From Nitrosopumilus sp. (GTDB taxonomy: Archaea > Thermoproteota > Nitrososphaeria > Nitrososphaerales > Nitrosopumilaceae): DNA of 64,000 nt. This document shows, piece by piece, positions 19,069 to 50,407 of this stretch. The notes below the pieces were generated by a model, which had not been told where the DNA came from, did no database searches, and was given only the letters and a program-made list of their open reading frames with translations. Position 1 is the stretch's first letter. Each line of letters begins with the position of its first letter. A program made the position numbers and the translations under genes. Location: contig OZ250186.1 of assembly GCA_965238275.1 (NCBI GenBank), positions 1,056,001-1,120,000 on the forward strand, read 5' to 3'.

Positions 19069-19153
19069 ATGCTGCTGCTGATCGTATTTGGCTACAAAGA
19101 GCTGCCGGAGCCCCCGCCGCCGGTGCTACCCTGAGATACTTCTGGGAAGACTG
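19069..19153. repeat. ~90-bp imperfect direct repeat, copy B, just downstream of the integrase
   Basis: Matches 8634-8724; preceded, like copy A, by a (degenerate) MITE end containing AATCTGGAGAAGATCC. Confidence 0.85.
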
Positions 19154-19220
19154 AGTGCGCTGACTGGTGGCAGGCTTGGTTACAGGTATGTGTGCCCGTT
19201 CTGCCTTGGCGCAAATACGC

Positions 19221-20501: not shown

Positions 20502-20766
20502 TTTTTGGGACTTGATTTTTTTGATTATGCCGCGTTTCTGCGCAATGATGGCGGCCCGGTAGTGGTAGTTGACAAACGCAACAGTCGAGCACGACTTGGG
20601 CTTGTTGGGCATGTTCCTCCTGATTATGTCGATTATGACGAAATGCGTTCCGACATCCTTGAACTTGGATACTATGCTCGCAAATCTTTTGGGCACCCCG
20701 ATCAGCTTGTCCGGCGTGGGATCATGGCATACCACGTATTGCATGCAAACGTGACAAATGCTTTAG

Positions 20767-20946
20767 TTAAAAATCTTGACAATTTTGCTGCCCCACGGCC
20801 ATCGCGTCCTTCCGGCGGCGGGCCTTGTCTGCACACTCCGGCATGACAAAGTCCGGCCTTGGCAGCCAGAATGCCGCCACGAAATACGCGGCCGCGCAGC
20901 CAAGCCATACCAGCGGAATGATTATCTTTGGATTCATCATGCCCAT
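20767..20946 (-). CDS. Small single-TM hypothetical protein
   Basis: PKIIIPLVWLGCAAAYFVAAFWLP hydrophobic stretch. Confidence 0.35.
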   Translation of the reverse strand: MGMMNPKIIIPLVWLGCAAAYFVAAFWLPRPDFVMPECADKARRRKDAMAVGQQNCQDF

Positions 20947-23226: not shown

Positions 23227-24300
23227 TCTATTGTACCGAAATTAGGTCGTCCTAATTTTAGACGTACTGCAAAGGAATACTTTGTCCTTTATCGGTCAAG
23301 AAAACCGTTGATAAAACGCCTGACTGCAAAGACAATCAGATACGCAGTCACACAGTGCAGGAAAGGCCAAAAGACGTCCCAGATTGCCAAAGAGATAGGA
23401 GTCTCACAAAGGCACGTTCAGCGACTGTACGCCCGGTTCTGCAGGACAGAATCCCACCACGTTCCAATGCCAGCGGGAAGAAAGCCCATACGGGCCACCG
23501 AAGACGAGATACGGCGGGTTCTGGACATGCACGCACGGGAACCGGTAGGCGTGCTGCGCACGGTAGGAAATCTCAAAACAGACTGCGATATAAGCTACAG
23601 ACGGGCATACAGGATCATGAAAGAGCATGGTTTGGTAACGCCCTCGGCTGCAAAGTCAAAGAAGAGAAAGTGGGTCCGTTTTGAGAGGAAATACTCGAAC
23701 GCAATGTGGCATGTGGACTGGCACGTCATGAAGGATCCGCGCTTCAGGGGCCTCAACCTGATAACGTACCTGGATGACTCATCCAGATGCATAGCAGCAG
23801 CACAGATGTTCACCGAGGCCACCTCTGAGAACGCGGTGGCCGTGCTGCGAAAGGCGATCGAGACGTTTGGAACACCTGCCACCATACTGTCTGACAACGG
23901 CTCATGCTTTGTAGGCGCGGCAGGCAGGCACAAGAAAGGAAAAGATGGCCGGAGAAGGAAGGCAGCTGCAGGATCATGGCAGCCCACCGCCTTTGAGGCC
24001 GAGCTGCTGGACCGCGGAATTGAACTGATAAACACCCGGCCGTACCATCCACAGACCAACGGAAAGCTGGAGCGGTTCCACCGCAGCATAGCGGAAGAGA
24101 TTTACCATTACGAGTCGCTGTCCGACTATGTCCAATACTATAATGAGCGAAGGCTGCACTTTTCACTTGACATGGCAAACCGTGAGACACCGCTCAGAGC
24201 GTTTTCCGCAAGAAAGGCCACAGATGAGATCAGAAAAGACAACCCCCAATGGATGGAGGTAGACACTGATGAGTAGGCGACATTATTTCGGTATACTACA
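23227..24300 (+). mobile_element. IS481-family element
   Basis: Imperfect TIR T(C/G)TA.T.TACCGAAAT, right end ACA; 15-bp TSD CTGACGGTGTTGGGG (23212-26, 24301-15). Confidence 0.9.
23308..24276 (+). CDS. IS481 transposase (rve domain)
   Basis: WHVDW, LDDSSR, SDNGS, PYHPQTNGKLERFH. Confidence 0.9.
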   Translation: MIKRLTAKTIRYAVTQCRKGQKTSQIAKEIGVSQRHVQRLYARFCRTESHHVPMPAGRKPIRATEDEIRRVLDMHAREPVGVLRTVGNLKTDCDISYRRAYRIMKEHGLVTPSAAKSKKRKWVRFERKYSNAMWHVDWHVMKDPRFRGLNLITYLDDSSRCIAAAQMFTEATSENAVAVLRKAIETFGTPATILSDNGSCFVGAAGRHKKGKDGRRRKAAAGSWQPTAFEAELLDRGIELINTRPYHPQTNGKLERFHRSIAEEIYHYESLSDYVQYYNERRLHFSLDMANRETPLRAFSARKATDEIRKDNPQWMEVDTDE

Positions 24301-24970
24301 CTGACGGTGTTGGGGTTGTAAGGCTGCACTACGGATATGATTTCAACGGCCATCCCGCTTGAAATCTCACCCTTCATCGTGAGCAGCTCGTTTAGCGGCA
24401 GGTCTATGCTGGCCTGGGTCTTGCGGCTTTCCCCGGAGTCGTTGTCAAGTACAGTCCAGTCGCCTTCCACCTTCCACCCGTTTACATACGTGTTCGGATC
24501 CACGTCAAGCGGAATCAGGATGTTGTCGCCGGTGTCGGTGTCCTCTATCCAGTTGAGCGAGTCATCGTTTGCCATCTCGTATTTTGCCAGGAGTTTGGGT
24601 ATCGGCATTGTATTTTCGGCGTCTGTATCCAGCACGGCTGCGGCAAACTCAAACTCGCCTGGGAACGTGTACGGGTCTAGCGGCTTTTCTGCACCTATTG
24701 TGCCATTTCCGTACACTATGTGGCCTTCTGCGTTCTTGGTGACTATCTCCATCGGGAAAGTTATCCCCGGGTTGGTGTTGTTGACTACCTGCGTGTTGTT
24801 GATTACTTGGACCGTGTGGGTGCTGTTGGTCGGTATTTCCTCCTTTACCGTAAAGACGTTGCCGCGCGACGTGACTATCTGGAGCTGCTTGGCAAACGCG
24901 TCCTCTGCGAATCCCGCGTACGCCGCGCCCAACACGGCAAACACGACAATGGCTGCAGCCAGTTTCGTCC

Positions 24971-25330
24971 TCATGTCAAAAACTCCTGCCAGCATTCAGC
25001 AAATTTGGTCGTGTTGACTATGTTTTTCACAGACGCCCCCACCTCATGTTCGACTGCGCAGATCCGCAGTACGGTGCCGTCATCATCAAGCACGCGGTAT
25101 TCCAATATATCCGTCTCCGGACCGGCATTATGCATCTTCAAGTCAGTTCCGTCCCACACGATGTCCACGTCTTCCTTGACGCGCTCGTTGTTGTGTATGG
25201 AAACCGCGGTTCCGGCATCAATCGCCTCGTTGTTTGCCTGCATGACGACAAACAAGATGGACACGCCGGAGACTACCAGTATGATTATGACTATACCTGA
25301 GACTAACATCGCGGCGCGGCCTCCGGCCAT
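24971..25330 (-). CDS. Archaeal type IV pilin-like protein (119 aa)
   Basis: Short basic leader MAGGRA followed by a hydrophobic helix; class III signal peptide-like. Confidence 0.55.
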   Translation of the reverse strand: MAGGRAAMLVSGIVIIILVVSGVSILFVVMQANNEAIDAGTAVSIHNNERVKEDVDIVWDGTDLKMHNAGPETDILEYRVLDDDGTVLRICAVEHEVGASVKNIVNTTKFAECWQEFLT

Positions 25331-25486
25331 TCAGCGTTGATTATTCGGGGGGGGGGATCTTTTTGGTCATGCGCACCGGATCCAAGGATGGGTTTGCAGG
25401 CACGCAGACGTCATTCATTGCACGCGTAAGGAATGAAAACGGTATAAAGGGAAAATCCTTCTTTTTTCCGACATTTCAGGCAGATT

Positions 25487-25915
25487 TCATCTGGCCAAAC
25501 CTGTCGAGTTCATCCTGGCGGCAAACCCGTCGGCCCTGACTGTCACGTCCAACTCGCGCAACACGACCTCGGATATCCCGGCCACCTTGACTATCATTCT
25601 TTGCGTGACGCCTTCCGTGTGGTCCAACGCTGCGCGCGTTGCGTATGCCGCCAGTATGACCGGGTTGCGCCCAACCGTCAGGCCAGCGCCGTTCAGCCGT
25701 TCCAGTATTTTCAGCGCCCTGCGCGCCGTCTTTTCGGACAGTTTCAGGTCGGATGCCAGTCGCGTGGCATAACCTGCGGCATTTGGAATCGGCAGGTTGG
25801 CGTCCATGGATTTGTGCAGATTGTAGTACGCGTGGCGCGCCTTCTTGGAATTCGCGTTGAGTGCCAAAAATACCTCCTTCATGCCTCGCGCCACGTTTTG
25901 TTCCCTGCATGCCAT
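25487..25915 (-). pseudogene. Transcription factor B (TFB) paralog, C-terminal cyclin repeats
   Basis: MACREQNVAR..KEV, RLASDLKLS, GRNP..LAA, TQR..VKVAGISEV. Confidence 0.75.
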
Positions 25916-26005
25916 AGACATAATCCGTAATAGGCAGTTTTGGGTCATTTCGTGCCTAGCATCTATTCCCACTTTGTGCCTAACGACTAATTACGGATTA
26001 CGTCT
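25916..26005. mobile_element. 90-bp MITE (AGACATAATCCGTAAT ends)
   Basis: 16-bp TIR; CAT on both sides; reverse complement of 54871-54960. Confidence 0.9.
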
Positions 26006-26009
26006 CATG

Positions 26010-26101
26010 GGGACTGTAACGTCTGCGTGTGACGGGACAGGCTGTAACATTTGTGTGACGGCTGGGTTCTGTAACATTACGGTGATATGGATCTTCTCCA
26101 G
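26010..26101. repeat. Three ~27-bp degenerate tandem units (CTGTAAC...GTGA) resembling stacked GGCnnTG-family ends
   Basis: The third unit ggttctgtaacattacggtga matches the reverse complement of 37423-37446 and is followed by GGATCTTCTCCAGA. Confidence 0.55.
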
Positions 26102-26459
26102 AAGGGCAAGATCAGATTGAGTTCTGTGCAATCTTTGGGTGCTGGTTTCTCTGGATTGAAGCGACAATCTATAGTGAAAAGCGAAAGTTCGTTCCAAGTT
26201 CAGCACCCCAGACCGAAAACTATGTAGATCATCTGGTCGCCTAACGTGGCATGAACGAGCAAATGTCGAGCACGACAGGAGGGTGGCGCTGCAGTTCATC
26301 GAGGAAGTGGTCAGGGTGTTCCTGTAACCCGCATTGGCGATTCGACTTGGCACGGCGTGCACTGAATACCGCCTTTGTGCTTGGATCCAGACTGCTTTCT
26401 CCCAAACACATGCTTTCTTAGGCAACGTCTATTGAAAAGGGGACCATACCTGTCTTCGT

Positions 26460-26954
26460 TTAGTCGTTTTTCTTGAAATCAATAGCCTTTTGCTTGTCAT
26501 TGAATGTTATTTGGTACTTGGTGAACAAGCCACTGCGACCAATCAGAATGTTTCTTTTAAGTTCTACTCCAATCGGATCGCGTTCCGGGAATGCGACATC
26601 TACGGTGTCTATGCCGATGCGTTGGCCTTTATATAGTATTTCTAGGTACATCTTTGACCTGTACGTGGTAAATTTTCCTCCGGCACCAATCGAATTTTTT
26701 TTAGATTTTTCATCAACCTCAAGCTGCAAGATGTTTGCAATTGCCCTCGGTATAAAACAGATGTCTGCCCCAGAATCCACCAGCGCATACGCTCTAAATT
26801 CAGGATTTTGTCCCGAAACCGCATGCTCTGAGAATCTCCTGAATATGACTTCTATCCTAGGTCTCTTGATTGGGACTACTTCCCCATCGTCATTTTTGAA
26901 CAGATCTGCTCTATATTTGAAGTGAAACTTGCCTGTAAACCTACTACCTCTCAA
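26460..26954 (-). CDS. Retropepsin-like aspartyl protease
   Basis: ALVDSGADIC and ILIGRSGLF motifs. Confidence 0.85.
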   Translation of the reverse strand: MRGSRFTGKFHFKYRADLFKNDDGEVVPIKRPRIEVIFRRFSEHAVSGQNPEFRAYALVDSGADICFIPRAIANILQLEVDEKSKKNSIGAGGKFTTYRSKMYLEILYKGQRIGIDTVDVAFPERDPIGVELKRNILIGRSGLFTKYQITFNDKQKAIDFKKND

Positions 26955-26969
26955 TATTCAGAGTCGGTG

Positions 26970-27179
26970 TCACAGGATTAATGTTTCTTCCTCTTGTTTT
27001 AGGGGCACCTGTTCAAACAAAGGGGTTCTTCCTTTACATACTGCCAAGGCGTCATTGTAGGTTTGTTCGACGTCTTCTCCCTCGGCTATAATTTTGGAAT
27101 CCAAAATAGCAATCCATTTGCCAGCATACTGCTCTCTGTTCTTTAAATTCAGTACAAATTCAGACTCTACGCTACTCAT
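26970..27179 (-). CDS. DUF5678-like small protein
   Basis: YAGKWIAILDSKIIAEG motif; directly upstream of the aspartyl protease. Confidence 0.8.
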   Translation of the reverse strand: MSSVESEFVLNLKNREQYAGKWIAILDSKIIAEGEDVEQTYNDALAVCKGRTPLFEQVPLKQEEETLIL

Positions 27180-27230
27180 GTCACAACCTCGTTAAATTAC
27201 TATATCAACTTTTGTGATTTAAAGGTAATG

Positions 27231-27526
27231 TGTATTGTAACGAAATTATGTCCGCCCCCTTTTGGTGGCTGTTTATCCATGGACATCCGCCTCCATCCAG
27301 TTTGGGTTGGTAGCTCTTGTGGATTCGTCTGCTGCCTTGTCATGGAACGCCTTGAGAGGCGTCTGGCAATTATCTATGTCAAGTGACCAGTGCAATCGTC
27401 TCTCGTTGTAGAATGTGATGAAATCTTCCAAGCTGTCGTGCCGTCCTACCTCGTCCTCAATGGTTCGGTGGAACCGCTCTAGCTTGCCGTTGGTCTGGGG
27501 GTGGTACGGTCTTGAATTGATCAATC
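27231..27526 (-). mobile_element. IS481 3'-end remnant
   Basis: TIR TGTATTGTAACGAAATTATGTC; LINSRPYHPQTNGKLERFH...NPNWMEAD is homologous to the 23308 transposase C-terminus. Confidence 0.85.
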
Positions 27527-27803
27527 CTATGTCGAGCTTGGCGCAGCATGATTTTGCCAAATGCCCCACGGTCGCCCTTTTTTGGTCGACCCTGTTGGCC
27601 ATCCTGCTGGCACGCCGCATCCTTTGGTCTCCGACTATGCTGGTGGACGACACGCGACTGCCGAACATTCCGTGGTTTTGGTCCTGGTCCATGCCGGGTC
27701 GCTCCATGGAAGAGTCAAGCACGCGCGCACATCCGGCGCAGACCGTCTCTCCTGCGAGTTCGTCTAGGATGGGCGTCGGGGCGGGGCAGGCGCATTCATT
27801 CAT
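27527..27803 (-). pseudogene. TFB paralog N-terminal part (Zn ribbon), fused in frame to the IS481 remnant
   Basis: CAC...ILDELAGETVCAGCARVLD. Confidence 0.7.
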
Positions 27804-27841
27804 GGATTGTGGGATGTTTTTTGCTTAAAACGGCCTCATCA

Positions 27842-28060
27842 TCACGATTGCTGCCACAGCTCAAACATCGTGTATTTGGACTCGACAATTTTGTTCTCCA
27901 GCAGCAGCTTGGCCTTGATACGTTCCACCAACAACCGTACCTCCCTTTCATTTTCGGGCGTGCGCATCAAAAACTTCCACACCAGGTGCTCGATATCGGT
28001 GGTGGTTTCAGGCTCCTCGTTCTCGATTCGGTTCTCCAGGGAGTCTGCCTTTATGGCCAT
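27842..28060 (-). CDS. Hypothetical protein (72 aa)
   Basis: Co-oriented with its neighbours; helical, charged composition. Confidence 0.5.
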   Translation of the reverse strand: MAIKADSLENRIENEEPETTTDIEHLVWKFLMRTPENEREVRLLVERIKAKLLLENKIVESKYTMFELWQQS

Positions 28061-28114
28061 GGATGGCTTGTGGCAAATCCACATATGGCTTTGTCGGTTC
28101 CGTAAAAAAAGTGG

Positions 28115-28309
28115 CTATGCCACGTTGACCCATTTCTTGGCAGTATGGAGCACGCGGCCATGGCCGCCGGACGTGGCCTCGCTCTGGAACTTGTCTATCT
28201 CGGACTGCGGCACGCCGGCCTTTTTCAATCCTTGATTGACCGTAACGAGTATCGCGATGGCGTTGCCGGCAATGCCTGATAGCCTGACAGTCACGTTGTA
28301 TTTTGGCAT
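28115..28309 (-). CDS. Small conserved mobile-element/phage-type hypothetical protein (64 aa)
   Basis: GNAIAIL..V..GLKKAG....EIDKF..EATSG pattern. Confidence 0.65.
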   Translation of the reverse strand: MPKYNVTVRLSGIAGNAIAILVTVNQGLKKAGVPQSEIDKFQSEATSGGHGRVLHTAKKWVNVA

Positions 28310-28343
28310 GGAATCAATAGGGCATCTACGTAAAAAGGACACG

Positions 28344-29019
28344 CTAGACCATGCATTCCCCGCCGCACGGGCCGTCTTTCTTGTCATCAACCGGCATCTC
28401 TTCCTTGTTCTCCATGATGTCTGCAAATTCGCGCAGCGTGAGATCCCCGGGACCCAGGTTCTGTTTCCCGAAATGCTTGCTGTTCTCCTCCAACACCATT
28501 GCGCGCTTGTACAGGTCCCGGTGGTTTTGATATATGTAGGCCCACCTCTCGATGTTGTTGAACGGGCAGATATCACACCCGCTCTTGATGGGCACCGGCA
28601 GGCCAGCCTTCTTGATCAGTTCGACACACCCGGTTCGGTCAATCTTGTGGTCAATCAACGGGTACAAGTTTGTCACGTTATCCATTCCAGGCGGCTTCAT
28701 GCGCCTGACTTCGCCGTAGTCAATCCCCATGTATTGGTATACGTGCGTCTTGAGGCCGCGGTAAAAAGCGTGTATCGGCCCCACCTTCATGTCGCGCGTG
28801 CACCACCTCCAGACTTCCGACGGGATTACCCTGCGCTTCTCACACCGGTCAGACAGGGAATCGTTGTTTTTCACGCTTACCACGTGCAACTGGACGCCAT
28901 GCTTGTCAAGGTATTTTCTCATGACGTCAAGGTACGCGATGGATGCAGGGGCGTGCATGAAATCGGGCATCAGGTGCTGCCGGTTCTGGGCGCTTTGACC
29001 GATCGTATTGATCCCGAAG
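28344..29019 (-). pseudogene. PAPS reductase-like (PP-loop, Cys-cluster) protein, N-terminus destroyed by IS66
   Basis: RWCTRDMKVGPI, MGID..E..R, YPLID, KSGCDICPF; no SxGxDS motif left. Confidence 0.7.
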
Positions 29020-30140
29020 GCTGCTGCTGCTGCTGCTGCCGAAGTTGCAGGCAGAACACGACGCTGCAAGGAGATGCCTGCAGGCACTCGTCACAGAGGA
29101 CAACAAGAGGTACGCCAAGGCCAACAGGGAGCTTAACGCCAAGGCCAACAGGATTCTGACCAAGAAAAAGGCAGGCCCAAGGAAGGCCGGCAGGCCCAAG
29201 GGGCAAAAACCCACCATCAACTGCAGGCCAAAACGTCACCGTGTCGAGGATCGACTGCAAGGAATGTCCCGACTGTGGCAACGACAATCTTTCGTGACTG
29301 ACAGGTACATCGCATCGTGACTGTCATGCGCGTCATACTGGAAAACGTCAGGTAATCAAGCGGCGCTGGTGCCGCGGGTGCAAAAAACAGGTCTCTGGAA
29401 GGGTTCCCGGCGCGGCAAAACACGCGCCGTTCATCAAACTTTGATGCGGCCATGACGTTCGGTTTGTCGCATGCCAGGGCCGCAGAATTTGGCAGCGACG
29501 CGTGGGGGCACAAAATCTCGCGCCCGTCTGCATACCGCGGCCAGGCCAGAGCGCATGGCACCGAGCGTGATTCTGTAAGAAAGCGCGTGTTAGAGGCGCC
29601 ACACCTGAACGCCGAATTCCACTGGCCGTTGGGCGGCAAACGCGGCTACGGGATAGTGGCCCTGGCAAAAGACGCCTGCCTCGTGGAGGTGACCGGCTCT
29701 CGGGACATCAAGACGCTTTGCCACACACTCCCGGACTACGGTGGAACCATAACGCAGGACTCGTATGCAGGATGGCTCCACGTGGGATCCTGCCTGCCAG
29801 ATGTGCGTGTGGCATCAGGAACGCCTGGTGCAAAAGGGCCTCTATCGTGGCGCGATCCGGGGCTGGTTTGCGGAGTGGCAGCTGCACGGGCCGAACCGTT
29901 TGCAGACGATGGGCACGGCACCATCGCCAGACACAAGAAGAGGAACCCCCGGGAGGGATACTTTATGACCACCTGCCTGCACGTGGACGGCATCGAGCCT
30001 GACAACAACGCAGTGGAGAGGGTCAACCGGAGGTTTGTGGCCATAAGGAGCGACGGGGGCGGAAACCGCTCCCAGAAGGGCATGGATGCCAACTCGATCC
30101 TGTTCACGCTGCTGGCAACTGACAGGATCAACGCGAACAA
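29020..30140 (+). mobile_element. Degenerate IS66 copy related to 11523-13290
   Basis: Colinear with ~11730-13130 but with many small indels; no TIRs seen. Confidence 0.85.
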
Positions 30141-30459
30141 CACTTGGCCGTGAAGATGGGACTGCAGAATGGTATGGTGCTACAAATCCGAGAACATGAA
30201 GGCTGGATTGCCATGCGCGTGGACCCGTCGCAAGAACCGGTGACGGAGGCAGGTTCCTGCTGTCCTGTAACGGCGGCAGAAGAATCGCAACCGGCACCAA
30301 AATGGTCCAATGCAGAAGAAAAACCAATTTCCCAAAAAGAGGAACCGCCAAATAATGACAACCACATATGCGGGTTTGACGGACTCGAACCCGTCGTGGT
30401 GCTTATGTGCAGTCGTCATAAACCGCATATGGCACGGAATCACTGTAGCATGACTGGGA

Positions 30460-30640
30460 ATTATATACAAGAGTAGACGGCAGCCGCCGAAGGCGTCCCA
30501 CGTCCACTCTTGTCTTTTTCTGAAGGCAGTGAAGCTATTCGATTGGCTCTCTCGTGCACGGTGGTTTCCCGCATACATGCGCGGGGCACCGTGTGCTCCT
30601 TTCTCCTCCTAACGACGACCTTCCCGGCCGCCTTTGCGCC
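30460..30640 (-). ncRNA. Candidate omega RNA scaffold overlapping the tnpB 3' end
   Basis: Hairpin AAGAGTGGACG...CGCC-TTC-GGCG...CGTCTACTCTT at 30511-30469. TnpB guide RNAs are known to overlap the 3' end. Boundaries are approximate. Confidence 0.45.
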
Positions 30641-31828
30641 GCGCGCGGATATGTTGACCGCCGCGTTCTTGTCCGCGTGATCCTCGTGCCCGCATCTTAC
30701 GCAAATGAATATTGATTGCGAGCGCCTGGAATTTCGGTCTGAGTGCCCGCAGGCGCCGCACGTCGTGGCTGGTGTAGTGCGGCTTTACCTTGTGGAACTC
30801 CTTGTTGTGCTTTTTTGCGAACCACTCTATGTACGACAGCACCTCGCCGAGCGCGGCGTGCATTATGGTCCGGTTCAAACCAGTCTTTCCCCTGCCCTTC
30901 CGTGCCATCTGCTTCGGGTGGAGGTTCTCGATTGCTATTATTTCCGCGCATGCAAGGTTCTCCTTGACTGACTTTCTCATGAAATCCGTTCGGCGGTTGG
31001 TTGTCTTGGCGTTCTTTTTTCGGATGCGCTCCTGTTCTTTTTTCCACGCGTTGCTGCCCTTTTTACGTCTAGACTGCGCGGATTTTTTCCTGTCAATGGA
31101 GTCTCCCTTGTACCGCGTGGCGTTCTCCGGGAGCGTTACCAGGACCGACTCATTGTTGTCCAAATTATGCACGGCCATCATGTTGACGGCGCCCACGTCT
31201 ATGCCGATAATGTCGCCGTCGCGGCGCGTTGGCTTGGCCACGCGTACCTGGACGTGCAGCTCGTACGTGCGGTCCTCCGGCCTAGTTTGTTTGGTTATCT
31301 TGTGAGTCGTCTCGACTATCTGGAAAGACTTGATGCTGTTGCGTTCAATCGCGGTGCTTTTGGTCATGACATTACAGATGCCGCCCAGGTTCCAGGAGCC
31401 GTCCTTGTTGCCTGCCGGCCTTGCATAGCACCCGATGGCTGCCTGCCTTTTGCCGTCCTGCCGCTTCCTGAACAGACTGTCCGGGGACGTGTATCTGCGC
31501 TTGCGTTTTGGCCTCCATCGCTTCCCTAGGTTTGACGCGTAAAATGCCTCGACTGCCTTGCGGCCGCCGTCAATCGCGTACCTGTGCACGAACACGTTCA
31601 GGTCCAGCCAACCGTATTCATCCCGCTTTTCCTTCAATTTTGAAAACATGTCGTACTGCGTGGGCCTGGCCTCCAGCGCCTGCCGGACGCCCTCGTTGTA
31701 GCACCAGTCTGTCTGGAAATGCGCCCGCCATATGAGGCGCGATGCCTCCTTTGATTGGTAAAACGGAATGGTGAATGTCTGCGTGGTGTATGGAAAATCT
31801 TGCTTCACTGGTATGGTACTATACGGTA
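30461..31828 (-). pseudogene. tnpB: TnpB RNA-guided nuclease; +1 frameshift near 30767; 5' end abuts an IS5 element
   Basis: GIDVG, AIENL, YTS; after the shift TTCGACG...CVRCG..HADKNAAVNI, stop at 30461-63. Confidence 0.85.
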
Positions 31829-33182
31829 AACTCTGTTTCCTAATTACGCTCGACACAGATACTCGTCTGTGCAATTCTGCCTACGTCGTCGTCTTGCCCC
31901 CTTCCCTTGCAGTCCTTGGGCCGGGCTTGTAGGCTTGCACGATCCTTGGCGTGCCGTACCCGTTGTCGATTGCAGTATCGATCATCTGGTTGTACAGCTG
32001 CACCTTTCCGTATATCTCGGCCTTGACGTTCTCCCACTTGCGCGCGCTTATGCACTCGCCCAACACCCGCTTGAACGTGGAAAATACAATCTCGACTGAC
32101 CACCGGTCGTTGTACCCTGACTCCCTGCGCCACGCCTTCTGGAATTCCCTCTTTTGTTCGCGCGTGAGGCCTGCAAACTTGCGTTCTGCCGTCTTGTCCA
32201 TGCAGTCCAGGTCCCCCAGCTGCCTGAATCCTGCCTCCTTGCGGGGCATGCACCCGTTCGCCTTTCCGGCAAAGTCGATGCGGACGGGAATCAGCGGCTC
32301 GATTCCCTGCTCGTCGCAGTACCTGCGGATCTTCTGGGTGTCGTACGCGCCGTCGGCTGCCGCCTTGGTGCCTGCAGAAGTGTCTGAGTTTGGTGATTTT
32401 TTTGCATTTGCAAGGGCCTGCCCCACCAGTTCCTCAAACTGCGGAGAGTCCCCGCACTTGTCGTCGGTTATGGCCACGGCGTAGATCTTTTTGGTTTTGG
32501 CATCCACCCCGACGTGCAGCTTTATGAAGCCCCGCCTGGTCCCCCACTTTTCTGTCATCCAGTCGCCGCGGTTTGTGGGCTTGAGTCCAGTGGAGTCGAA
32601 GGCAAACAGCTTGATCTCGGCCCGGGTGCCGCCGTCTGAGAACCACGCAGAAGCCGTGCCGCTACCATCATCATTGTCTGCAACAGTGCAGCCAAGCTTG
32701 GTCATCCTCTTCTGGAACGCCGAGTACGTGGGCGCGTTTTCCTTGCCGACTATCGTCTCTGCCAGACCCTGGAGCTGCCTGTACCTTATGCCGGTGGCGT
32801 TTTTGAACAGGGATGCTGCTGCAAAGCACGCGTTTGAAAATACGTACGGGCGGCCTACCTTCCCGCAGTTTAGCTTCTCGACCCCCTGAGTCAGGATCTC
32901 CGGGCTTATCTGGAGCGTCCACAACTGGCCGCGGTCTATGTACCTGCGGTCATCGTACTGGAACCGGCGTTCTTTGGATTTGAAAGATTTTTTAGCCTCA
33001 TGCGTGCCCGTTTTGTCTGGAGAGGATGTGTTTTCAGTCATGGCGATAACCTGACTGTCTGCACACCTCTCTGATCAATACGGTTTTCTATTGAAGATGT
33101 TTGATATTGTGTTCAAATTCAACTGATCTGGCCTAATTCTGAACCTGTTGGGTGTGACTGGCGATAATTAGGAAACAGAGTT
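31829..33182 (-). mobile_element. IS5-family (IS903-like transposase) element, copy 1; no TSD
   Basis: TIR AACTCTGTTTCCTAATTA; near-identical to 40168-41521. Confidence 0.9.
31881..33041 (-). CDS. IS5-family transposase (386 aa)
   Basis: FDSTG, FIKLHVGVD, ADGAYD, GYNDRWSVEIVFS. Confidence 0.9.
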   Translation of the reverse strand: MTENTSSPDKTGTHEAKKSFKSKERRFQYDDRRYIDRGQLWTLQISPEILTQGVEKLNCGKVGRPYVFSNACFAAASLFKNATGIRYRQLQGLAETIVGKENAPTYSAFQKRMTKLGCTVADNDDGSGTASAWFSDGGTRAEIKLFAFDSTGLKPTNRGDWMTEKWGTRRGFIKLHVGVDAKTKKIYAVAITDDKCGDSPQFEELVGQALANAKKSPNSDTSAGTKAAADGAYDTQKIRRYCDEQGIEPLIPVRIDFAGKANGCMPRKEAGFRQLGDLDCMDKTAERKFAGLTREQKREFQKAWRRESGYNDRWSVEIVFSTFKRVLGECISARKWENVKAEIYGKVQLYNQMIDTAIDNGYGTPRIVQAYKPGPRTAREGGKTTT

Positions 33183-33608
33183 CGCATATGCAGTACAATT
33201 AATATGATGAATCTTAATGTCTGATGCTTTGGGAATGTTGTGATAAATTGCAAATCTGTCTTGCATGAAATACGAACGCCTGACTTGTTAAAAAATTAAA
33301 CTATTCAGTAACATGATCGTGCTGTTGTTTCCCATTCACCGTCAAGGCGGCATTTGGCCATCCGTATACCATGGGTCACTCTTTTGCACGCCATCATAAG
33401 TGGCAAGTTCTTGCCGACTCCCAGGTCCGACAGGGTAAATGCCATGGTCACCGCTAACGGCAACACATGGCGTCTTCGGCGCGTCGCTAAAGGTGTTTCT
33501 CGGGGATGGCAGTCGGTCGTAAAATCAGTCAGTTGACGCAAAAAGAGTCAGTCAGGTATAGTTTTTTTGACACGCCCTGTAATTAGACGATTCATCCACC
33601 AATAACAC

Positions 33609-33839
33609 ATGGCCAAATACGAGGAACTCATCCATAATGTAACCCGGCATGCAAGTGCGGGGGTATTGCATGACACTACAGGCGAAAAACACATGGCGAT
33701 AACAGAATACGAAGACGGCATAATTGCACTGGATGCCATCTTGAAGGATCATCCGGGACGCGGGCCGCACGATCTGTTCGTTTACAGGCGTGGCCTGTAT
33801 GCCAAACGGATTGACGTGTTGCGTGCACAGTTAATGTGA
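33609..33839 (+). CDS. Stand-alone MIT domain protein (Vps4/CdvC N-terminal-like, 76 aa)
   Basis: EL..N...A......D..G...MAIT.Y..GI.AL..IL..HP......Y..R..Y..RI..L three-helix pattern. Confidence 0.7.
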   Translation: MAKYEELIHNVTRHASAGVLHDTTGEKHMAITEYEDGIIALDAILKDHPGRGPHDLFVYRRGLYAKRIDVLRAQLM

Positions 33840-34043
33840 CGGATATTTGTCATATGTGTGGCATCTTGGATGGCTCATTGATTCAGATTCATCCAACTCA
33901 TTACCACAAAACACGCACATGTTCTCGTCCTGCCGTCTGAACCATTCATCGAGGCATACCATGTGTACGTCACCGCTCCCACCATCGCCGGCATCTTTGT
34001 CTGGATATATCTCCCTGTCGCAAAACATGCATGGGCCTAGCAT
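33831..34043 (-). CDS. Small double zinc-finger protein (family member 1)
   Basis: CMFC...HMVCLDEWFRR....CVFCG...Y.KYP. Confidence 0.7.
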   Translation of the reverse strand: MLGPCMFCDREIYPDKDAGDGGSGDVHMVCLDEWFRRQDENMCVFCGNELDESESMSHPRCHTYDKYPSH

Positions 34044-34441
34044 GCAGACAGATGTATACGGTACGTAAAAACACCTTGGCTGTGTCAAAATAACGGATGC
34101 CGGTATTCATGGCCAACAACATCCAATAGAAAGCATACATATGCTGACGCGTAGCTTGTTGAACACATGATAACCCTGCCCACCACGTGTGACGGGCTGA
34201 CCCCTGACTGTGCATGGTCACAAAGACCTGGTCTTTGAATGGGGCTATCCGAGCTGCCGTGTTACTGGACTTTGAGTCTAAGAGGCGGCAGACGCAGTTC
34301 AGCCGGGGAGCCGCAGCAGGAGACGCAGGTGATGCTCCAAAGGGCGCATGTTCACGTTTCTCAGGTACCGGGGCATGCCGCCGCACGATGACGCAACCGA
34401 GCTGGAGATACACGGCACTGTACAGGAACGCGCAACACCAG

Positions 34442-34520
34442 AGACGTAATCCGTAATTAGTCGTTAGGCACAAAGTGGGAATAGATGCTAGGCACGAAAT
34501 GACCCAAAACTGCCTATTAC
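34442..34520. mobile_element. 90-bp MITE, truncated by an IS66 end
   Basis: Identical to 54871-54949. Confidence 0.85.
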
Positions 34521-35160
34521 GTAACTGTGTAGTTTTTTGATCAAATGGTGAATTCCATGCCTACAAGATCCTCCGCACTATGTATTTTTTTCAAACATGG
34601 AACCAGATTCTCGCGCAGGACCGTGCATAATCAACGATCATCGTCCCCTTGCCTTGCAGACGTCTGCTTGATGCTCAGGTGCGCAGCACGGCAATCGGCG
34701 TCTGCGCGCCTTCTTGGACCTGCTCCCGTTGACTGTTCTTGCGAAGAGTCAACGTACGGCCTGATGGCCCGCTCTGCCCGGTTGTTGTGGTATTCGACAT
34801 CGTCAGTCTCCAGAAACGCAAACAGGTGATCCCTTTCCCGCACCAGCCGTCGCATCCCGGCAGGTCTGTTGCAGTGCTTGCCGTCGCGGTCCTTCACGCC
34901 GATCCCGGCCTATCAGCGAACGCGATGCGACGGTCCACTTCGCACGACTCTTCTTGGTCGGCATAGCGCGGTCTGCTCCTCCCGGAATGGCACCGTCAGA
35001 CGTGCGAGTCCCACAGTAAATGCTGCGCAGCGTCCTTGCGTGCCGCCGGTAGTCCTGGCCGGATTGGCGTATCTCAGGGTGTCCTTGATGTACCGGGCTG
35101 TAATGCAGGTCAGGCCACTTTTGGTGCATGGATCCTATGACGCATTTTCCACGCTCACCC
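34521..35160 (-). mobile_element. Degenerate IS66 remnant (3' end)
   Basis: GTAACTG end; HLFAFLE...VEYHNNRAERAIRP in ORF 34631-34897. The far boundary is approximate. Confidence 0.7.
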
Positions 35161-35162
35161 AC

Positions 35163-36408
35163 GAGTAACATCGTGCTGTTGTTTCCCATTCACCGTCAAG
35201 GCGCATCCCGTATACCATGGGTCACTCTTTTGCACGCCATCATAAGTGGCAAGTTCTTGCCGACTCCCAGGTCCGACAGGGTAAATGCCATGGTCACCGC
35301 TAACGGCAACACATGGCGTCTTCGGCGCGTCGCTAAAGGTGTTTCTCGGGGATGGCAGTCGGTCGTAAACTCAGTCAGTTGACGCAAAAAGAGTCAGTCA
35401 GGTATAGTTTTTTTGACACGCCCTGTAATTAGACGATTCATCAATAACACATGGCCAAATACGAGGAACCATCCATAATGTAACCCGGCATGCAAGTGCG
35501 GGGGTCCTTGCATGACACTACAGGCGAAAAACACATGGCATATCCAGAATCTGACATGCCGTGCATAATTGCCTGAGGATGACCATCATTGAAGGATCAT
35601 AAAGTTGATCCCGTACCTGGAGTTTGGCAGTTGCCAGGCGGGCCTGTCCTGCCGGACACGTGTCTTCTTGCACAGTTCCTGCAGCGGATCTTTACTGTCA
35701 CCTTGATGTGCTCTAGTTCCATCATCCGGGACGCGGGCCCCTGGCACAGCTTGGATGGCTCATTGATTCAGATTCATCCAACTCATTACCCAAAACACGC
35801 ACATGTTCTCGTCCTGCCGTCTGAACCATTCATCGAGGCATACCATGTGTACGTCACCGCTCCCACCATCGCCGGCATCTTTGTCTGGATATATCTCCCC
35901 GCGCAAAACATGCATGGGCCTAGCATGCAGACAGATGTATACGGTACGTAAAAACCCTTGGCTGTGTCAAAATAACGGATGCCGGTATTCATGGCCAACA
36001 ACATCCAATAGAAAGCATACATATGCTGACGCGTAGCTTGTTGAACACATGATAACCCTGCCCGGACGTGTGACGGGCTGACCCCTGATCTGTGCATGGT
36101 CACAAAGACCTGGTCTTTGAATTTGGCTATCCGAGCTGCCGTGTTACTGGACTTTGAGTCTAAGAGGCGGCAGACCTTCAGCCGGGGAGCCGCAGCAGGA
36201 GACGCAGGTGATGCTCCAAAGGGCGCATGTTCATGTTTCTCAGGTACCGGGGCATGCCGCCGCACGATGACGCAACCGAGCTGGAGATACACGGCACTGT
36301 AAAAATAGTTTCAAAAAAAACTACACCAGAGACGTAATCCGTTTAGTCGTTAGGCACAAAGTGGGAATAGATGCTACGGCACGAAATGACCCAAAACTGC
36401 CTATTACG
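35163..36408. repeat. Degenerate second copy of 33306-34520 (MIT and zinc-finger genes frameshifted)
   Basis: Numerous indels; scrambled 35540-35750. Confidence 0.85.
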
Positions 36409-36418
36409 GATTATGTCT
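36330..36418. mobile_element. MITE (89 bp) at the break of a cognate-family transposase
   Basis: AGACGTAATCCG...TTACGGATTATGTCT. Confidence 0.85.
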
Positions 36419-37268
36419 CTGGTATCCACTGTCTAGGAGCTCTCTGACCTTGGTCCTTTTCTTGTCCTTGCCCCCGTCCTTGCATGGAAGATTCTCTGGG
36501 AATGTCGGGTGCTTTTTTTTGAATACCGCAAAGTCATGGATCTTGCCCGGGGAATGCCTGGTCTTGTGGAGGATGAGGCCGTCCGTGGCTGGCGTGTACT
36601 GGACCTTGGACGTGTGCCTGTGTGCCTTGCCCGAGTAGTGGGACTTTTCCATGTCCTTGCGCTTGGGGCGCTGTATCTGCTGCTCGGAGGCATCAATCAG
36701 GGCAGTCAGGCCCGGAATGATCTCATCAAGATCGTCAAGCGTCTTGGTGGCCTTGATGTCAGAGTATATCTTTGACGGAAGCGGAACGCACTGCCGGATC
36801 GACGGCTCCAGTGCCCCCATGCTGCGGGACACGCTGGCCTGACCCACATGGAACGTCAGGGCAAGAAGATCCTGCGTGGCGTATGTCCTGTAATAGAACA
36901 GGACCAGAAGAAACCTGTTTTTCAGATCCAGTTTCCACCTGCGTCCGGCGCCCATGCCGCGCACCCTGTCTCTTCTGGAGAGTCGCTTTTGCTCTGCCTT
37001 GGGGTATTTTTCTGCCAGCCGCCCTGCCACCAAATCAAATTCGGAGACTGTCAGTCCAGTGCACCGGATGAACAGATTGGGCTTTTTTGTCAATCTGTCG
37101 TACAATGACATGCTTTGACATTGGAAATCAAAATAAAACACGACTGACGTATCGTTTTGATCATTGGGTGAGCCCGAATTGACCTGTAATCCCTGCAACC
37201 GACCGGATTTGGTTCGACAATGTGCCCAATCGCGTGGTTATGCCCAATTACGGATGATGATGATGTCT
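36419..37268 (-). mobile_element. Truncated IS5-family (DDE_Tnp_4) element related to 41838-43004
   Basis: Transposase 37111->36419 stops at LDSGYQ; degenerate TIR at 37245-37268. Confidence 0.85.
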
Positions 37269-37496
37269 CATGGATCGTGACAAGAATGCCGGGCGCAGCA
37301 TCCTGGCGCGTGGGCTGTGGTGGTTTGGCCCAGTCGGATCCGCAAGTGAAGCGATGGTGGTGAGGGCTAGATCTGGGAAGCCGGATTCGAATACTTTAGT
37401 CGATGCGGATCAGTCAAGTCGCGGGTCACCGTAACTTTACAGAGCCGCCACTGAACAACATTAATGAATCGCGGCGTTTCACATGGCTTGTTGGTT

Positions 37497-38309
37497 ATGG
37501 CAAGCATGATCTCCATACTGGAATCGGACGGAATCTACACTGACGAGAAGACCGTACGCGGCATATTGGAAATGGGGGAAGAGTCGTTCCATCTTTTGGC
37601 ACAACTTGCGACAGATGATGAGTACTGGAACGATCTGGATGATGACAGCTTGGTTCCAATATGTGCAATACATATTCTGGCCAAGATGAAACATTACAGG
37701 GCGCAGCTGGTCATAAACACAGCCATCATAAAGCATTATGAAGAAACCGGCGACTGGCTGACCGAGGACATGCCGTACGTGCTGGCACACATGGGGGTCG
37801 GTGCCATACCGACGTTGACTGCCCTCATGCGGTACGATGGTGCCGACATATTCGTGCGAGGCGGCACGGCAGGCGCGTTGATTATGATCGCCATGGACAA
37901 TCCGGAGGTAAAATCTGGCATAGTTGCATCGATAAAGGATGCCGCACAAAACGAGGCAGACATTGTAACAAGGACCGTACTTGTCAATGTCCTGCTGGAC
38001 CTGAAAGATCCCGACCTGTACGGATACCTAAAGGACTCGTTGGAGACAGGCTTTATCCTAGATGATTATTTCGATCTGGATTATCTTGACGGCGCATATG
38101 CTGGCACGTTCAATCCATCACGCGGGGTTCCAATGGATCCCCTGTACATTTTCTCGTATTCCGATGAGAACCCATACAAATATGCGGACGGCGACAGAGG
38201 CAGTGCCGGGCCACACACAATCCCGAAGGTAGGCAGAAACGAACGCTGCCCCTGCGGTTCGGGGAAAAAATACAAAAAATGCTGTCTATCCATGAGACAT
38301 AATCCGTAA
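37497..38309 (+). CDS. DUF1186/HEAT-repeat-like protein with C-terminal SEC-C motif
   Basis: [18 protein letters not shown]; [20 protein letters not shown]; the tail RHNP* comes from the MITE. Confidence 0.85.
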
Positions 38310-38382
38310 TGAACGATTTGTCGTGAATCTGTGCCTAGCACCCACGTCCACTTTGCCTAACTGCTAATTACGGATTATGTCT
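38295..38382. mobile_element. 88-bp variant MITE with the same TIRs
   Basis: AGACATAATCCGTAAT...TAATTACGGATTATGTCT; diverged interior. Confidence 0.85.
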
Positions 38383-38593
38383 CAGGAGTTCGTCAAGACC
38401 GGCACGGCAAAATACGTGGAATACGCGTGTCCGCTCATGCTGTTTACGGCCGCCGCGGCATTCATGTTGTTGTTGGCACATGCTCACATTGCGATCTTGG
38501 TTGTATAGCTGCAGGATCCGCAAACTATCTCTGCTATCCCACGGTTCACGTATTCACGGGTTTCATGGTCGGTGATGCGCATGCATTCGACAC

Positions 38594-38661
38594 GGCACTG
38601 TTCAGAATTGTGGATCAAGGGTCAAATCATACCGGCCAGATCACCAAAAATGAACAGTGCC
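38594..38661. mobile_element. 68-bp GGCACTG...CAGTGCC mini-element
   Basis: GGCACTGTTCA inverted at both ends; its right half recurs inverted at 39887-39912. Confidence 0.7.
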
Positions 38662-38992
38662 GTATTCTCGAACCGCCCGTGGCACGTTTCGACAACGTTC
38701 AACCCGTCCCCACACGTCACATCAAACGCGCCGTGGAACCTGTGCCGCCCGTCGTACATCTTTTGGACAAACCTCTCTTCTTCTGCTGGATAGCGCCCGC
38801 CGTGGTACATGCCGCCGTCCTAGAAATCGAACACCAACACGTCCAGGTTCACAACATCACCGTAATTCAGTTTGAGCTTCTGAATCAAGGACAGGACGGC
38901 GTGGGCGGATCCTGCCTGTCAGGCTGGATCTTTTACTTCTGTGTTAACTGACCCTGGAAGAATTATTATATATACATGGAGAAAAACATTCA

Positions 38993-39841
38993 ATGATTGT
39001 AGTGACGAACAAACAACGCACGTTGTTGATGGCAATCGCCATAATCGCCGTCGCAGGCGTGGCCGTCATCATCATCATCACCACCACCACCACCACCACC
39101 ACTGCCACTGTCGGCTTTCTTGTCACAGATTCCTCGACTGTCACCGTCACCACCACCACCTACAACCCAGACATGACAGACTGGTGGGACGACATGATCG
39201 AGCACCTTGACGACGAGAAAAGCAAGATCTGGACCGAGCCAGCTTGGGGCGACGAGATATGGGTCGAAATAGAAGATCTAGGCAATGACATGTACCGCAT
39301 ATCACTGCACGGCATAGCCGCGTCCGGCCAACCCATCGTGTACACGATAACGGAGACCGCAACCGGGTACGACAAGTATGGACCGGCATTGCCTGACGGC
39401 AGCATGGATTCTCGCAGTTACATAAAAATTAATGAGGGCGAGGGAACTGCTCCAATAGAAGGCTACGCCCACATAGACCACGTACCGGTGACCCAGGCGA
39501 TTCATCCGTTTCCAATCAACAGCATCACGCACCACGCTTCGAACGACACCATAACCGTCGTCTTCGAAGGCGGTACGCACCCGTCATCCGGGGCCGTCAC
39601 GAATTTTGAATACTCCGACAGTTACGCGGTAAACGAATCATTCGCGTTTGGCTGCTACGAATCCGGGGACTATGCGTACTTGGTGTTTTACGGGTACTTG
39701 GGAACCGTCACGGTGAACAATACGACACACATGCGCCTTTTGCACTACGACGGTATGACCCAAGATCCAATGCAGTGCGCCTACCCTGACGTCATACGCC
39801 ATTCAAAGTCCGCCATTCCGGAAAATATTGACTATAACTAA
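38993..39841 (+). CDS. Membrane-anchored exported protein with Thr-rich linker
   Basis: N-terminal hydrophobic anchor; (ATC)4(ACC)6 microsatellite at ~39068-39100; terminal CAYP.VI.HS. Confidence 0.75.
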   Translation: MIVVTNKQRTLLMAIAIIAVAGVAVIIIITTTTTTTTATVGFLVTDSSTVTVTTTTYNPDMTDWWDDMIEHLDDEKSKIWTEPAWGDEIWVEIEDLGNDMYRISLHGIAASGQPIVYTITETATGYDKYGPALPDGSMDSRSYIKINEGEGTAPIEGYAHIDHVPVTQAIHPFPINSITHHASNDTITVVFEGGTHPSSGAVTNFEYSDSYAVNESFAFGCYESGDYAYLVFYGYLGTVTVNNTTHMRLLHYDGMTQDPMQCAYPDVIRHSKSAIPENIDYN

Positions 39842-40167: not shown

Positions 40168-41521
40168 AACTTTGTTTCCTAATTATCGCCAGTCACACCC
40201 AACAGGTTCAGAATTAGGCCAGATCAGTTGAATTTGAACATCATATCAAACATCTTCAATAGAAAACCGTATTGATCAGAGAGGTGTGCAGGCAGTCAGG
40301 TAACAGCCATGACTGAAAACACATCCTCTCCAGACAAAACGGGCACGCATGAGGCTAAAAAATCTTTCAAATCCAAAGAACGCCGGTTCCAGTACGATGA
40401 CCGCAGGTACATAGACCGCGGCCAGTTGTGGACGCTCCAGATAAGCCCGGAGATCCTGACTCAGGGAGTCGAGAAGCTAAACTGCGGGAAGGTAGGCCGC
40501 CCGTACGTATTTTCAAACGCGTGCTTTGCAGCAGCATCCCTGTTCAAAAACGCCACCGGCATAAGGTACAGGCAGCTCCAGGGTCTGGCAGAGACGATAG
40601 TCGGCAAGGAAAACGCGCCCACGTACTCGGCGTTCCAGAAGAGGATGGCCAAGCTTGGCTGCACTGTTGCAGACAATGATGATGGTAGCGGCACGGCTTC
40701 TGCGTGGTTCTCAGACGGCGGCACCCGGGCCGAGATCAAGCTGTTTGCCTTCGACTCCACTGGACTCAAGCCCACAAACCGCGGCGACTGGATGACAGAA
40801 AAGTGGGGGACCAGGCGGGGCTTCATAAAGCTGCACGTCGGGGTGGATGCCAAAACCAAAAAGATCTACGCCGTGGCCATAACCGACGACAAGTGCGGGG
40901 ACTCTCCGCAGTTTGAGGAACTGGTGGGGCAGGCCCTTGCAAATGCAAAAAAATCACCAAACTCAGACACTTCTGCAGGCACCAAGGCGGCAGCCGACGG
41001 CGCGTACGACACCCAGAAGATCCGCAGGTACTGCGACGAGCAGGGAATCGAGCCGCTGATTCCCGTCCGCATCGACTTTGCCGGAAAGGCGAACGGGTGC
41101 ATGCCCCGCAAGGAGGCAGGATTCAGGCAGCTGGGGGACCTGGACTGCATGGACAAGACGGCAGAACGCAAGTTTGCAGGCCTCACGCGCGAACAAAAGA
41201 GGGAATTCCAGAAGGCGTGGCGCAGGGAGTCAGGGTACAACGACCGGTGGTCAGTCGAGATTGTATTTTCCACGTTCAAGCGGGTGTTGGGCGAGTGCAT
41301 AAGCGCGCGCAAGTGGGAGAACGTCAAGGCCGAGATATACGGAAAGGTGCAGCTGTACAACCAGATGATCGATACTGCAATCGACAACGGGTACGGCACG
41401 CCAAGGATCGTGCAAGCCTACAAGCCCGGCCCAAGGACTGCAAGGGAAGGGGGCAAGACGACGACGTAGGCAGAATTGCACAGACGAGTATCTGTGTCGA
41501 GCGTAATTAGGAAACAGAGTT
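40168..41521 (+). mobile_element. IS5-family element, copy 2, intact
   Basis: TIR AACT(T/C)TGTTTCCTAATTA; TSD GATTCGGC (40160-67, 41522-29). Confidence 0.95.
40309..41469 (+). CDS. IS5-family transposase (386 aa; one T/A difference from 31881-33041)
   Basis: ORF track comparison. Confidence 0.9.
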   Translation: MTENTSSPDKTGTHEAKKSFKSKERRFQYDDRRYIDRGQLWTLQISPEILTQGVEKLNCGKVGRPYVFSNACFAAASLFKNATGIRYRQLQGLAETIVGKENAPTYSAFQKRMAKLGCTVADNDDGSGTASAWFSDGGTRAEIKLFAFDSTGLKPTNRGDWMTEKWGTRRGFIKLHVGVDAKTKKIYAVAITDDKCGDSPQFEELVGQALANAKKSPNSDTSAGTKAAADGAYDTQKIRRYCDEQGIEPLIPVRIDFAGKANGCMPRKEAGFRQLGDLDCMDKTAERKFAGLTREQKREFQKAWRRESGYNDRWSVEIVFSTFKRVLGECISARKWENVKAEIYGKVQLYNQMIDTAIDNGYGTPRIVQAYKPGPRTAREGGKTTT

Positions 41522-50329: not shown

Positions 50330-50407
50330 ACCCGTTTCGTGTGGATTTGACTGTGCCTGAATGCCGATTCAACATAACCCCTTTTATTTGATTCATTCTT
50401 GCCTTTC

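Follow-up and report, generated by a model that had tools for sequence, protein, structure and literature searches.

A rare stand-alone MIT-domain gene among insertion sequences in a Nitrosopumilus genome

A 76-residue open reading frame (ORF) on the forward strand of a Nitrosopumilus sp. genome encodes a MIT domain that stands by itself, and we are highly confident that this ORF, referred to as the MIT ORF herein, is a genuine MIT-domain gene. It lies at positions 33609–33839 of the 64,000-nucleotide stretch of contig OZ250186.1 that was analysed (the window; coordinates are those of the window unless another sequence is named). The gene is real, rare and partly decaying. Our preferred reading is that it is an accessory gene for a bare MIT bundle, the product of which would dock on the MIM2-type tails of the host Cdv proteins in competition with CdvC; we hold this whole explanation tentatively, with a probability of about 0.4.

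The MIT ORF begins with the ATG at 33609 and ends with the TGA at 33837–33839. A first-pass annotation, made from the sequence alone, had described it as a complete frame with its own start and stop and with no AAA domain after it. The ORF calls agreed with this description, as did a tblastn search of the whole window with the host CdvC, which detected nothing AAA-like in the interval 33000–37000; since the same search also missed the MIT ORF itself, its sensitivity is limited and it speaks for a well-preserved AAA remnant only. Neither an AAA+ ATPase nor a Vps4_C domain follows the MIT domain, and the MIT ORF is accordingly not a member of the CdvC/Vps4 ATPases. Upstream of the start codon, the sequence TAATTA (33580–33585, forward strand) lies 24–29 nt 5' of the ATG and is a possible archaeal TATA box. 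When the general spacing rule for archaeal promoters is applied to this element, a leaderless or near-leaderless mRNA would be possible for the MIT ORF.

The Pfam model for the MIT domain, PF04212, did not recognise the MIT ORF. The search of the ORF returned no family at E ≤ 1, a six-frame search of the genome at E ≤ 10 returned nine places from which the MIT ORF was absent, and the Pfam gathering threshold of 30 bits was not reached. The corresponding region of the host CdvC, residues 6–73, scores 35.3 bits against this cut-off. Using BLASTP, we found that the MIT ORF aligns to these residues of the 397-aa host CdvC without a gap and with 22 of 68 positions identical (32%; pairwise E = 4e-9). 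With the MIT ORF as query, the N-terminus of CdvC was matched in 35 of 40 related genomes, at the start of frames of approximately 400 aa (392–464 aa); two shorter matched frames, of 123 and 142 aa, are on fragmented assemblies, and the one in G019 runs into the end of its contig. A profile built from 16 CdvC MIT domains of the order, and from no sequences of the small family to which the MIT ORF belongs, was then searched against the six-frame translation of the 2.2-Mb genome. With the limit set at E ≤ 1, this profile found CdvC (143.1 bits) and the MIT ORF (30.9 bits, E = 5.8e-7) and nothing else. The MIT-like residue pattern that had been noticed in the ORF is therefore upheld, and at a level beyond chance, by the BLASTP match to CdvC, by the matches in 35 of the 40 genomes and by the CdvC-MIT profile.

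Comparisons of profiles and of modelled structures led to the same family. Alignment of the small family with the CdvC MIT profiles by hhalign gave a probability of 98.1% over 69 columns. When the small-family profile was searched against PDB sequences at E ≤ 10, six matches were obtained, of which the top four were archaeal CdvC/Vps4 MIT chains (4lcb, E = 5.7e-4; 2w2u, E = 2.1e-3; two chains of 2v6y, E = 8.6e-3 and 0.012) and the other two had E > 1. A protein language model placed 20 of its 30 look-alikes of the MIT ORF in the MIT set (top score 0.93, with 207 of 256 features in common). AlphaFold2, given an alignment of 23 rows (A4), predicted helices at residues 2–23, 27–47 and 54–75 with a pLDDT of 95.5; the resemblance of this model to MIT structures is partly circular, since 16 of the 23 rows are themselves CdvC MIT domains. 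A model from the single sequence showed these helices as well, but at a pLDDT of only 63.4. A Foldseek search with the AlphaFold2 model placed the Sulfolobus MIT structures 2v6y and 2w2u at the top (TM 0.90–0.93, rmsd 1.0–1.4 Å), and ranks 1–16 were all MIT-domain entries; the E values of the top MIT structures were 2e-3 to 9e-3, none being at or below 0.001. The MIT profile match expected from the first-pass annotation thus failed with the Pfam model and succeeded with the lineage-specific CdvC-MIT profile, with hhalign and with the PDB profile search. By profile and predicted fold, we assign the MIT ORF to the MIT superfamily, although it scores below the Pfam threshold.

These results also bear on the suggestion that the MIT ORF is a chance reading frame and no gene. 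Such a frame would be expected to be short, as this one is at 76 aa, and to have no Pfam match of its own, as is again the case. Chance does not account for full-length, gap-free, in-frame homology to a known domain that was recovered by several independent methods, or for a full-length relative at 55% identity, and we regard this suggestion as very improbable.

That relative, P0003, came from an exhaustive phmmer search of 1.84 billion representative sequences, which returned 13 proteins at E ≤ 0.001. Two of these are relatives of the MIT ORF, namely an N-terminally shifted 56-aa allele and P0003 itself (73 aa, 55% identity, no indel), which is the single full-length relative among the representatives. 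The remaining 11 are long repeat proteins that were treated as repeat-summed noise; the five that were scanned were FG-GAP or TPR proteins. P0003 matches the Pfam MIT model with E = 4.5e-4 (20.7 bits) and the NCBIfam model cell_div_CdvC with E = 8.4e-6 over residues 4–71, and it can be regarded as a bridge in sequence between the MIT ORF and CdvC. The divergence of P0003 from the MIT ORF without any frameshift implies long-term selection as a protein.

The distribution of the small family is narrow. When a further 400 genomes of the order (45 from the same genus) were searched with the profile, 202 gave a match, and the matches listed included no orthologue of the small family, each lying either in a frame about as long as CdvC or in a cdvC gene that was cut or split. 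Of the matches listed, the highest-scoring reached 44.6 bits, versus 167 bits for the MIT ORF itself; 57 weaker matches lie outside those listed. One CdvC match in the tally of 202 comes from each of the unpublished genomes G132 and G287, which were used nowhere else. Scans with the small-family alignment of IMG/VR, of GTDB genome contigs and of JGI metagenome contigs confirmed no relative, and tblastn with the MIT ORF found nothing among 50,697 records of phages or among 72,556 of plasmids. In addition, 52 short proteins similar to the MIT domain of the host CdvC were set aside as CdvC fragments, as they are at least 56% identical to this domain and 46 of the 52 come from contigs shorter than 10 kb.

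The first-pass annotation had stated that a recent truncated copy of cdvC under no selection would speak against its interpretation. A recently truncated duplicate of the 5' end of the host gene would explain why the alignment covers exactly the MIT part of CdvC, and a cdvC gene of another genome of the order, G190, which is split into a 135-aa MIT ORF and a 255-aa AAA ORF, demonstrates that such fragments can arise. The degree of divergence does not agree with this origin. CdvC MIT domains within the genus are 83–89% identical to that of the host, whereas the MIT ORF is 32% identical to the host CdvC and 28–32% identical to the MIT domains of CdvC within the genus. Maximum-likelihood analysis grouped the six small-family rows together (support 100/100), and a branch of more than five changes per column lies between this group and all 16 CdvC rows. 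There is also no AAA remnant nearby, within the limited sensitivity of the tblastn search. A recent cdvC fragment is therefore rejected on the basis of the identity values and the long branch, and we consider this origin extremely improbable. The tree was built without an outgroup and leaves 15 of its 19 inner branches unresolved, and it therefore does not place the origin of the family. Taken with the distribution described above, the MIT ORF is an old descendant of a CdvC/Vps4-type MIT domain that is present in one strain or species group only.

The surroundings of the MIT ORF are dense in insertion sequences (IS). Transposase genes number at least 13 in the window and belong to five families (IS5/DDE_Tnp_1, DDE_Tnp_4, IS66, IS481/rve and IS605 OrfB). 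A 1355-bp IS5-like element on the reverse strand (31829–33183), encoding a 386-aa DDE transposase, ends 425 bp 5' of the MIT ORF, and since 13 full copies of it with at least 99% identity are present in the genome, recent transposition is suggested. The IS5-like element occurs in the window both at 31829–33183 and at 40309–41469. Between this element and the MIT ORF lies a 164-nt repeat fragment (33330–33493), of which six other copies with approximately 90% identity adjoin IS110-like transposase genes. Downstream, a frameshifted remnant of an IS66-family transposase gene (34545–35190, reverse strand) was recognised by comparison with a 464-aa transposase in L086. When the 20 kb at 19000–38999 were compared with five genomes of the same genus, IS pieces and one SEC-C gene were in common and nothing more.

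We refer to this IS-dense, non-syntenic region as an IS graveyard. The proposal that the MIT ORF lies in a mobile region was thus correct as regards IS density and lack of synteny, and it found no support as regards a definable mobile element, virus or plasmid: the MIT ORF had no PHROG, phage, plasmid or IMG/VR match, the window contains no tRNA gene, and its single integrase is 13 kb from the MIT ORF. PHROG, PADLOC and NCBIfam searches returned nothing for the MIT ORF or for the nearby ORFs of 644, 285, 144 and 282 aa that were scanned. Several other genes of the window were noted in passing. The reverse strand at 28344–29087 encodes a 247-aa protein with a match to SspD (PADLOC, E = 2.3e-20) and to a PAPS-reductase PHROG; judged by these matches, it is possibly the remnant of a phosphorothioation defence system, alone among IS elements. 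On the forward strand, the large subunit of ribonucleotide reductase (50399–54097) is split by an intein that contains a LAGLIDADG domain, and 61402–63213 encodes a GmrSD-type restriction endonuclease.

The MIT ORF is part of a cassette of approximately 1.1 kb that is present twice, in tandem. The second copy (copy B) lies approximately 1.85 kb downstream, at 35160–36330, on the far side of the frameshifted IS66 remnant, and its flanks are 94–100% identical to those of the copy that carries the intact MIT ORF (copy A). Copy B has been destroyed. The 5' remnant of its MIT ORF (35442–35535, forward strand) carries a 1-nt deletion and a 1-nt insertion, the part encoding helix 2 is replaced by a 186-nt patch (35536–35721, reverse strand), and the segment of approximately 95 nt that specifies helix 3 in copy A (33767–33861) is missing. 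The remainder of the cassette (35747–36301) is 94–100% identical to copy A and includes a frameshifted version of the neighbouring zinc-finger ORF, which is described below. Nine other places match the 186-nt patch at 82–86%, and it stems from the part of an IS66-family transposase gene that encodes the zinc finger. An origin of the copy B divergence in adenine-specific diversity generation was considered and dropped, because the divergent patch is derived from IS66.

Close alleles of the MIT ORF are likewise in mixed condition. Its cluster at 90% identity holds seven sequences, and a second cluster holds two more alleles together with one unrelated, permease-like sequence of 302 aa. Five of these nine alleles are intact; they vary at seven amino-acid sites and are at least 96% identical. 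They account for 22 of the 26 contigs with a close allele, one of the 22 being an NCBI contig of 2.03 Mb. The other four (P0018, P0020, P0002 and P0022), each from one contig, are broken by a C-terminal frameshift or begin at an internal out-of-frame ATG. Judged by their position at a homopolymer run, some of the frameshifted alleles could be assembly errors. Contigs of three sequencing runs in two studies (X1, X2 and X3) cover 33381–34467 with one or two differences, none of them inside the ORF. A contig of a fourth run (X7), in a third study, has 15 differences over 33424–34184. The source sample of the genome may be among these runs.

The destroyed copy B and the four broken alleles are signs of decay, and they raise the question of whether the MIT ORF is a decaying relic that once worked in an ancestor or in an element since lost, is idle here and persists by chance in the IS graveyard. 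Several observations are in keeping with this explanation: copy B was broken by the IS66-derived patch, by two 1-nt indels and by the loss of helix 3; four of nine close alleles are frameshifted; no orthologue appeared among the matches listed for the 400 other genomes of the order, including the 45 of the same genus; the surrounding 20 kb share with five genomes of the genus IS pieces and one SEC-C gene only; and the intact alleles vary at seven amino-acid sites despite their high overall identity. Copy A, however, is intact and letter-identical in the contigs of the three runs from two studies, possibly including the source sample, 22 of the 26 contig occurrences are intact, P0003 has kept frame and length at 55% identity, and the count of frameshifted alleles may be inflated by assembly errors at the homopolymer run. 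On balance we consider an idle relic somewhat unlikely, though a serious contender.

If the MIT ORF is functional, the Cdv machinery of its host is the obvious place to look for a ligand. The host genome encodes CdvA (90.6 bits), three Snf7-type CdvB paralogues and CdvC (397 aa; G000, 1439731–1440927), the last with AAA, MIT and Vps4_C domains scoring 127.9, 35.3 and 22.4 bits, respectively; the MIT ORF is located 350 kb from cdvC. Neither FtsZ_C nor MCR_alpha had a match in the host genome. This bears out the expectation that the host encodes Cdv division proteins, and the predicted gene set is in keeping with a TACK-group archaeon that divides by means of Cdv.

The tails of the three CdvB paralogues contain the short MIM2 core (hydrophobic-P-x-hydrophobic-P) in the forms FPSVP, FPSAP and IPDVP, following the definitions of the motif in passages of PMC8970359 and PMC5840170. 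In an alignment of CdvB tails (A5), FPSVP is present in 13 of 13 tails of the first paralogue and in five of seven tails of the second, the other two having FPSAP. While the CdvB paralogues have the short core only, the proline-rich C-terminal tail of CdvA (L036:1153–2130) contains LPEAPTEPVP, which corresponds to the full, longer MIM2-type pattern. Passages of PMC5840170 describe weak MIT binding by the tails of Sulfolobus CdvB1 and CdvB2, which are of the KEKFPSLP type, and place MIM2 between MIT helices 1 and 3, with helix 1 forming half of the groove. When the MIT ORF was paired with 50 tail residues of one of the CdvB paralogues in a complex prediction, the score was 0.01 versus a mark of 0.32; having been run without controls, this prediction argues neither for nor against binding. 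Given its fuller MIM2 motif, the CdvA tail might be a better partner for such a prediction.

Two further MIT-like ORFs were observed outside the window. The first is an 82-aa ORF of the host genome, located 5' of the proteasome alpha-subunit gene (L004:1519–1767; 1753807–1754055 of its own genome), that resembles a MIT domain weakly (Pfam E = 0.039; hhalign 49% versus the CdvC MIT profile). A search of 40 relatives did not find it, and its last 20 residues match genome sequence approximately 1.5 kb from the 164-nt IS110-associated repeat. The second is the split cdvC of G190 (L097:1000–2214), in which a 135-aa ORF for MIT plus linker and the 255-aa AAA ORF directly follow cdvB; this split may be real or may be an assembly frameshift.

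The small family differs from CdvC in a consistent manner. At 16 positions the MIT ORF and P0003 agree with each other and differ from the residue or residue class that is kept in 11–16 of the 16 order-level CdvC MIT domains. Four of these switches are conservative, and the other twelve are E8I, Y14H, E17A, Q35E, A37G, V/I42D, L47D/E, L53P, N54H, E/D59Y/W, A/C61R and Q72R. We reasoned that these twelve switches argue against simple mimicry of CdvC and suggest a changed binding specificity. The MIT ORF and P0003 are identical at 9 of 22 positions in helix 1, 13 of 21 in helix 2 and 14 of 20 in helix 3; helix 1 is therefore the least conserved part of the small family, yet CdvC sequences conserve it well (mean 0.65). 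Since helix 1 supplies one half of the MIM2 groove, its divergence argues against the MIT ORF product having the same ligand as CdvC. The pattern of conservation suggests that the small family has a conserved surface of its own, and with it a function, perhaps through a different or retuned ligand.

A candidate for a different ligand is encoded next door. A Cys/His zinc-finger ORF (33831–34088, reverse strand; 85 aa, or 70 aa from a later Met) is convergent with the MIT ORF, and their 3' ends overlap by 9 nt. It contains an H-x2-C-L-x2-W stretch that is RING-H2-like, although no family matched above threshold: the best Pfam model was RINGv with 19.2 bits (cut-off 21.6), and other RING models were weaker. 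PADLOC had no match for it, and its own cluster was the sole match among 5.8 billion clusters. It was duplicated together with the MIT ORF, and the clusters of the two ORFs share one narrow range of contigs, with 238,024 bp as the length of the longest in each cluster. We therefore weighed the possibility that the product has a MIT fold with a new specificity, directed at a partner outside the Cdv system, such as the zinc-finger product, within a small accessory cassette. The overlapping 3' ends, the joint duplication and the shared narrow distribution would agree with a functional pairing, and the approximately twelve conserved class switches relative to CdvC, as well as the stronger conservation of helices 2 and 3 compared with helix 1, would agree with a new binding surface. 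Against this, neighbourhood alone is weak evidence, and the zinc-finger ORF lacks a family match above threshold. In our judgement a partner outside the Cdv system is unlikely.

We return to the preferred reading, in which the ligand is part of the Cdv machinery. As the protein would consist of a MIT domain only, it could be expected to act solely by docking on a short linear motif, and the candidate docking sites would be the tails of MIM2 type, rich in proline, that CdvA and the three CdvB paralogues carry. Tails occupied by the MIT-only protein would be masked from CdvC, and masking may in turn slow the turnover of ESCRT-III during division or vesicle formation. The preferred ligand may nevertheless differ from that of CdvC, given the surface switches specific to the family. 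That the product binds MIM tails on the Cdv machinery is a tentative proposal, to which we would assign somewhat less than an even chance. Given a host with CdvA and three MIM2-bearing CdvB paralogues, a decoy or adaptor role, as first suggested from the sequence, is possible. A more far-reaching version would have a horizontally moving MIT-only protein, perhaps together with its RING-like zinc-finger neighbour and with a binding surface of its own, modulate thaumarchaeal Cdv/ESCRT; CdvA and CdvB tails would then be capped against CdvC, and division would be delayed or ESCRT-III diverted to the budding of vesicles or viruses. We consider this version distinctly improbable.

MIT-MIM contacts bring the ATPase CdvC/Vps4 to ESCRT-III polymers, and to our knowledge the Cdv machinery of Nitrososphaerota has hardly been studied by experiment. 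A natural bare MIT domain would offer a ready-made probe, or a natural inhibitor, for these contacts, and a MIT-only gene would exemplify the exaptation of a core cell-division module as accessory DNA. Its narrow distribution and its decayed sister copy keep the finding modest. We found no description of a stand-alone archaeal MIT gene in the literature listings consulted or in passages of PMC10936438, PMC8970359, PMC5840170 and PMC7240154, the supplementary tables of which might list some.

Among known systems, the closest are the MIT domains of archaeal CdvC/Vps4 (2V6Y, 2W2U, 4LCB; PF04212). The MIT ORF has in common with these the three-helix bundle of approximately 70 residues, to which it aligns over its full length without gaps, and its residues D22, G25, A30, Y34, R60, R67 and L71 are shared with all 16 aligned thaumarchaeal CdvC MIT domains. 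It differs in lacking the linker, the AAA+ ATPase and Vps4_C, and in being only 23–32% identical to CdvC. At the level of structure, the top viral matches (BFVD) of the ORF model were small baculovirus proteins, helical bundles of similar size (TM 0.78–0.83) that are uncharacterised and not significant matches (Foldseek E at least 0.065, identity 13–24%); we do not claim relatedness, and the three-helix bundle is a fold that chance produces repeatedly. The BFVD look-alikes of the model included no protein of an archaeal virus. The split cdvC of G190 resembles the window ORF in having a separate MIT-bearing ORF, but it is an ordinary CdvC N-terminus that stands before its AAA half and adjoins cdvB, whereas the MIT ORF is far diverged and distant from cdvC. 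In eukaryotes, MITD1, spartin, NRBF2 and Vta1 likewise use a MIT domain as a docking module without the Vps4 ATPase, and their MIT domains were among the Foldseek matches of the ORF model (TM 0.55–0.82, identity 12–19%). These eukaryotic proteins bear further domains that supply their function, whereas the product of the window ORF is a bare MIT domain.
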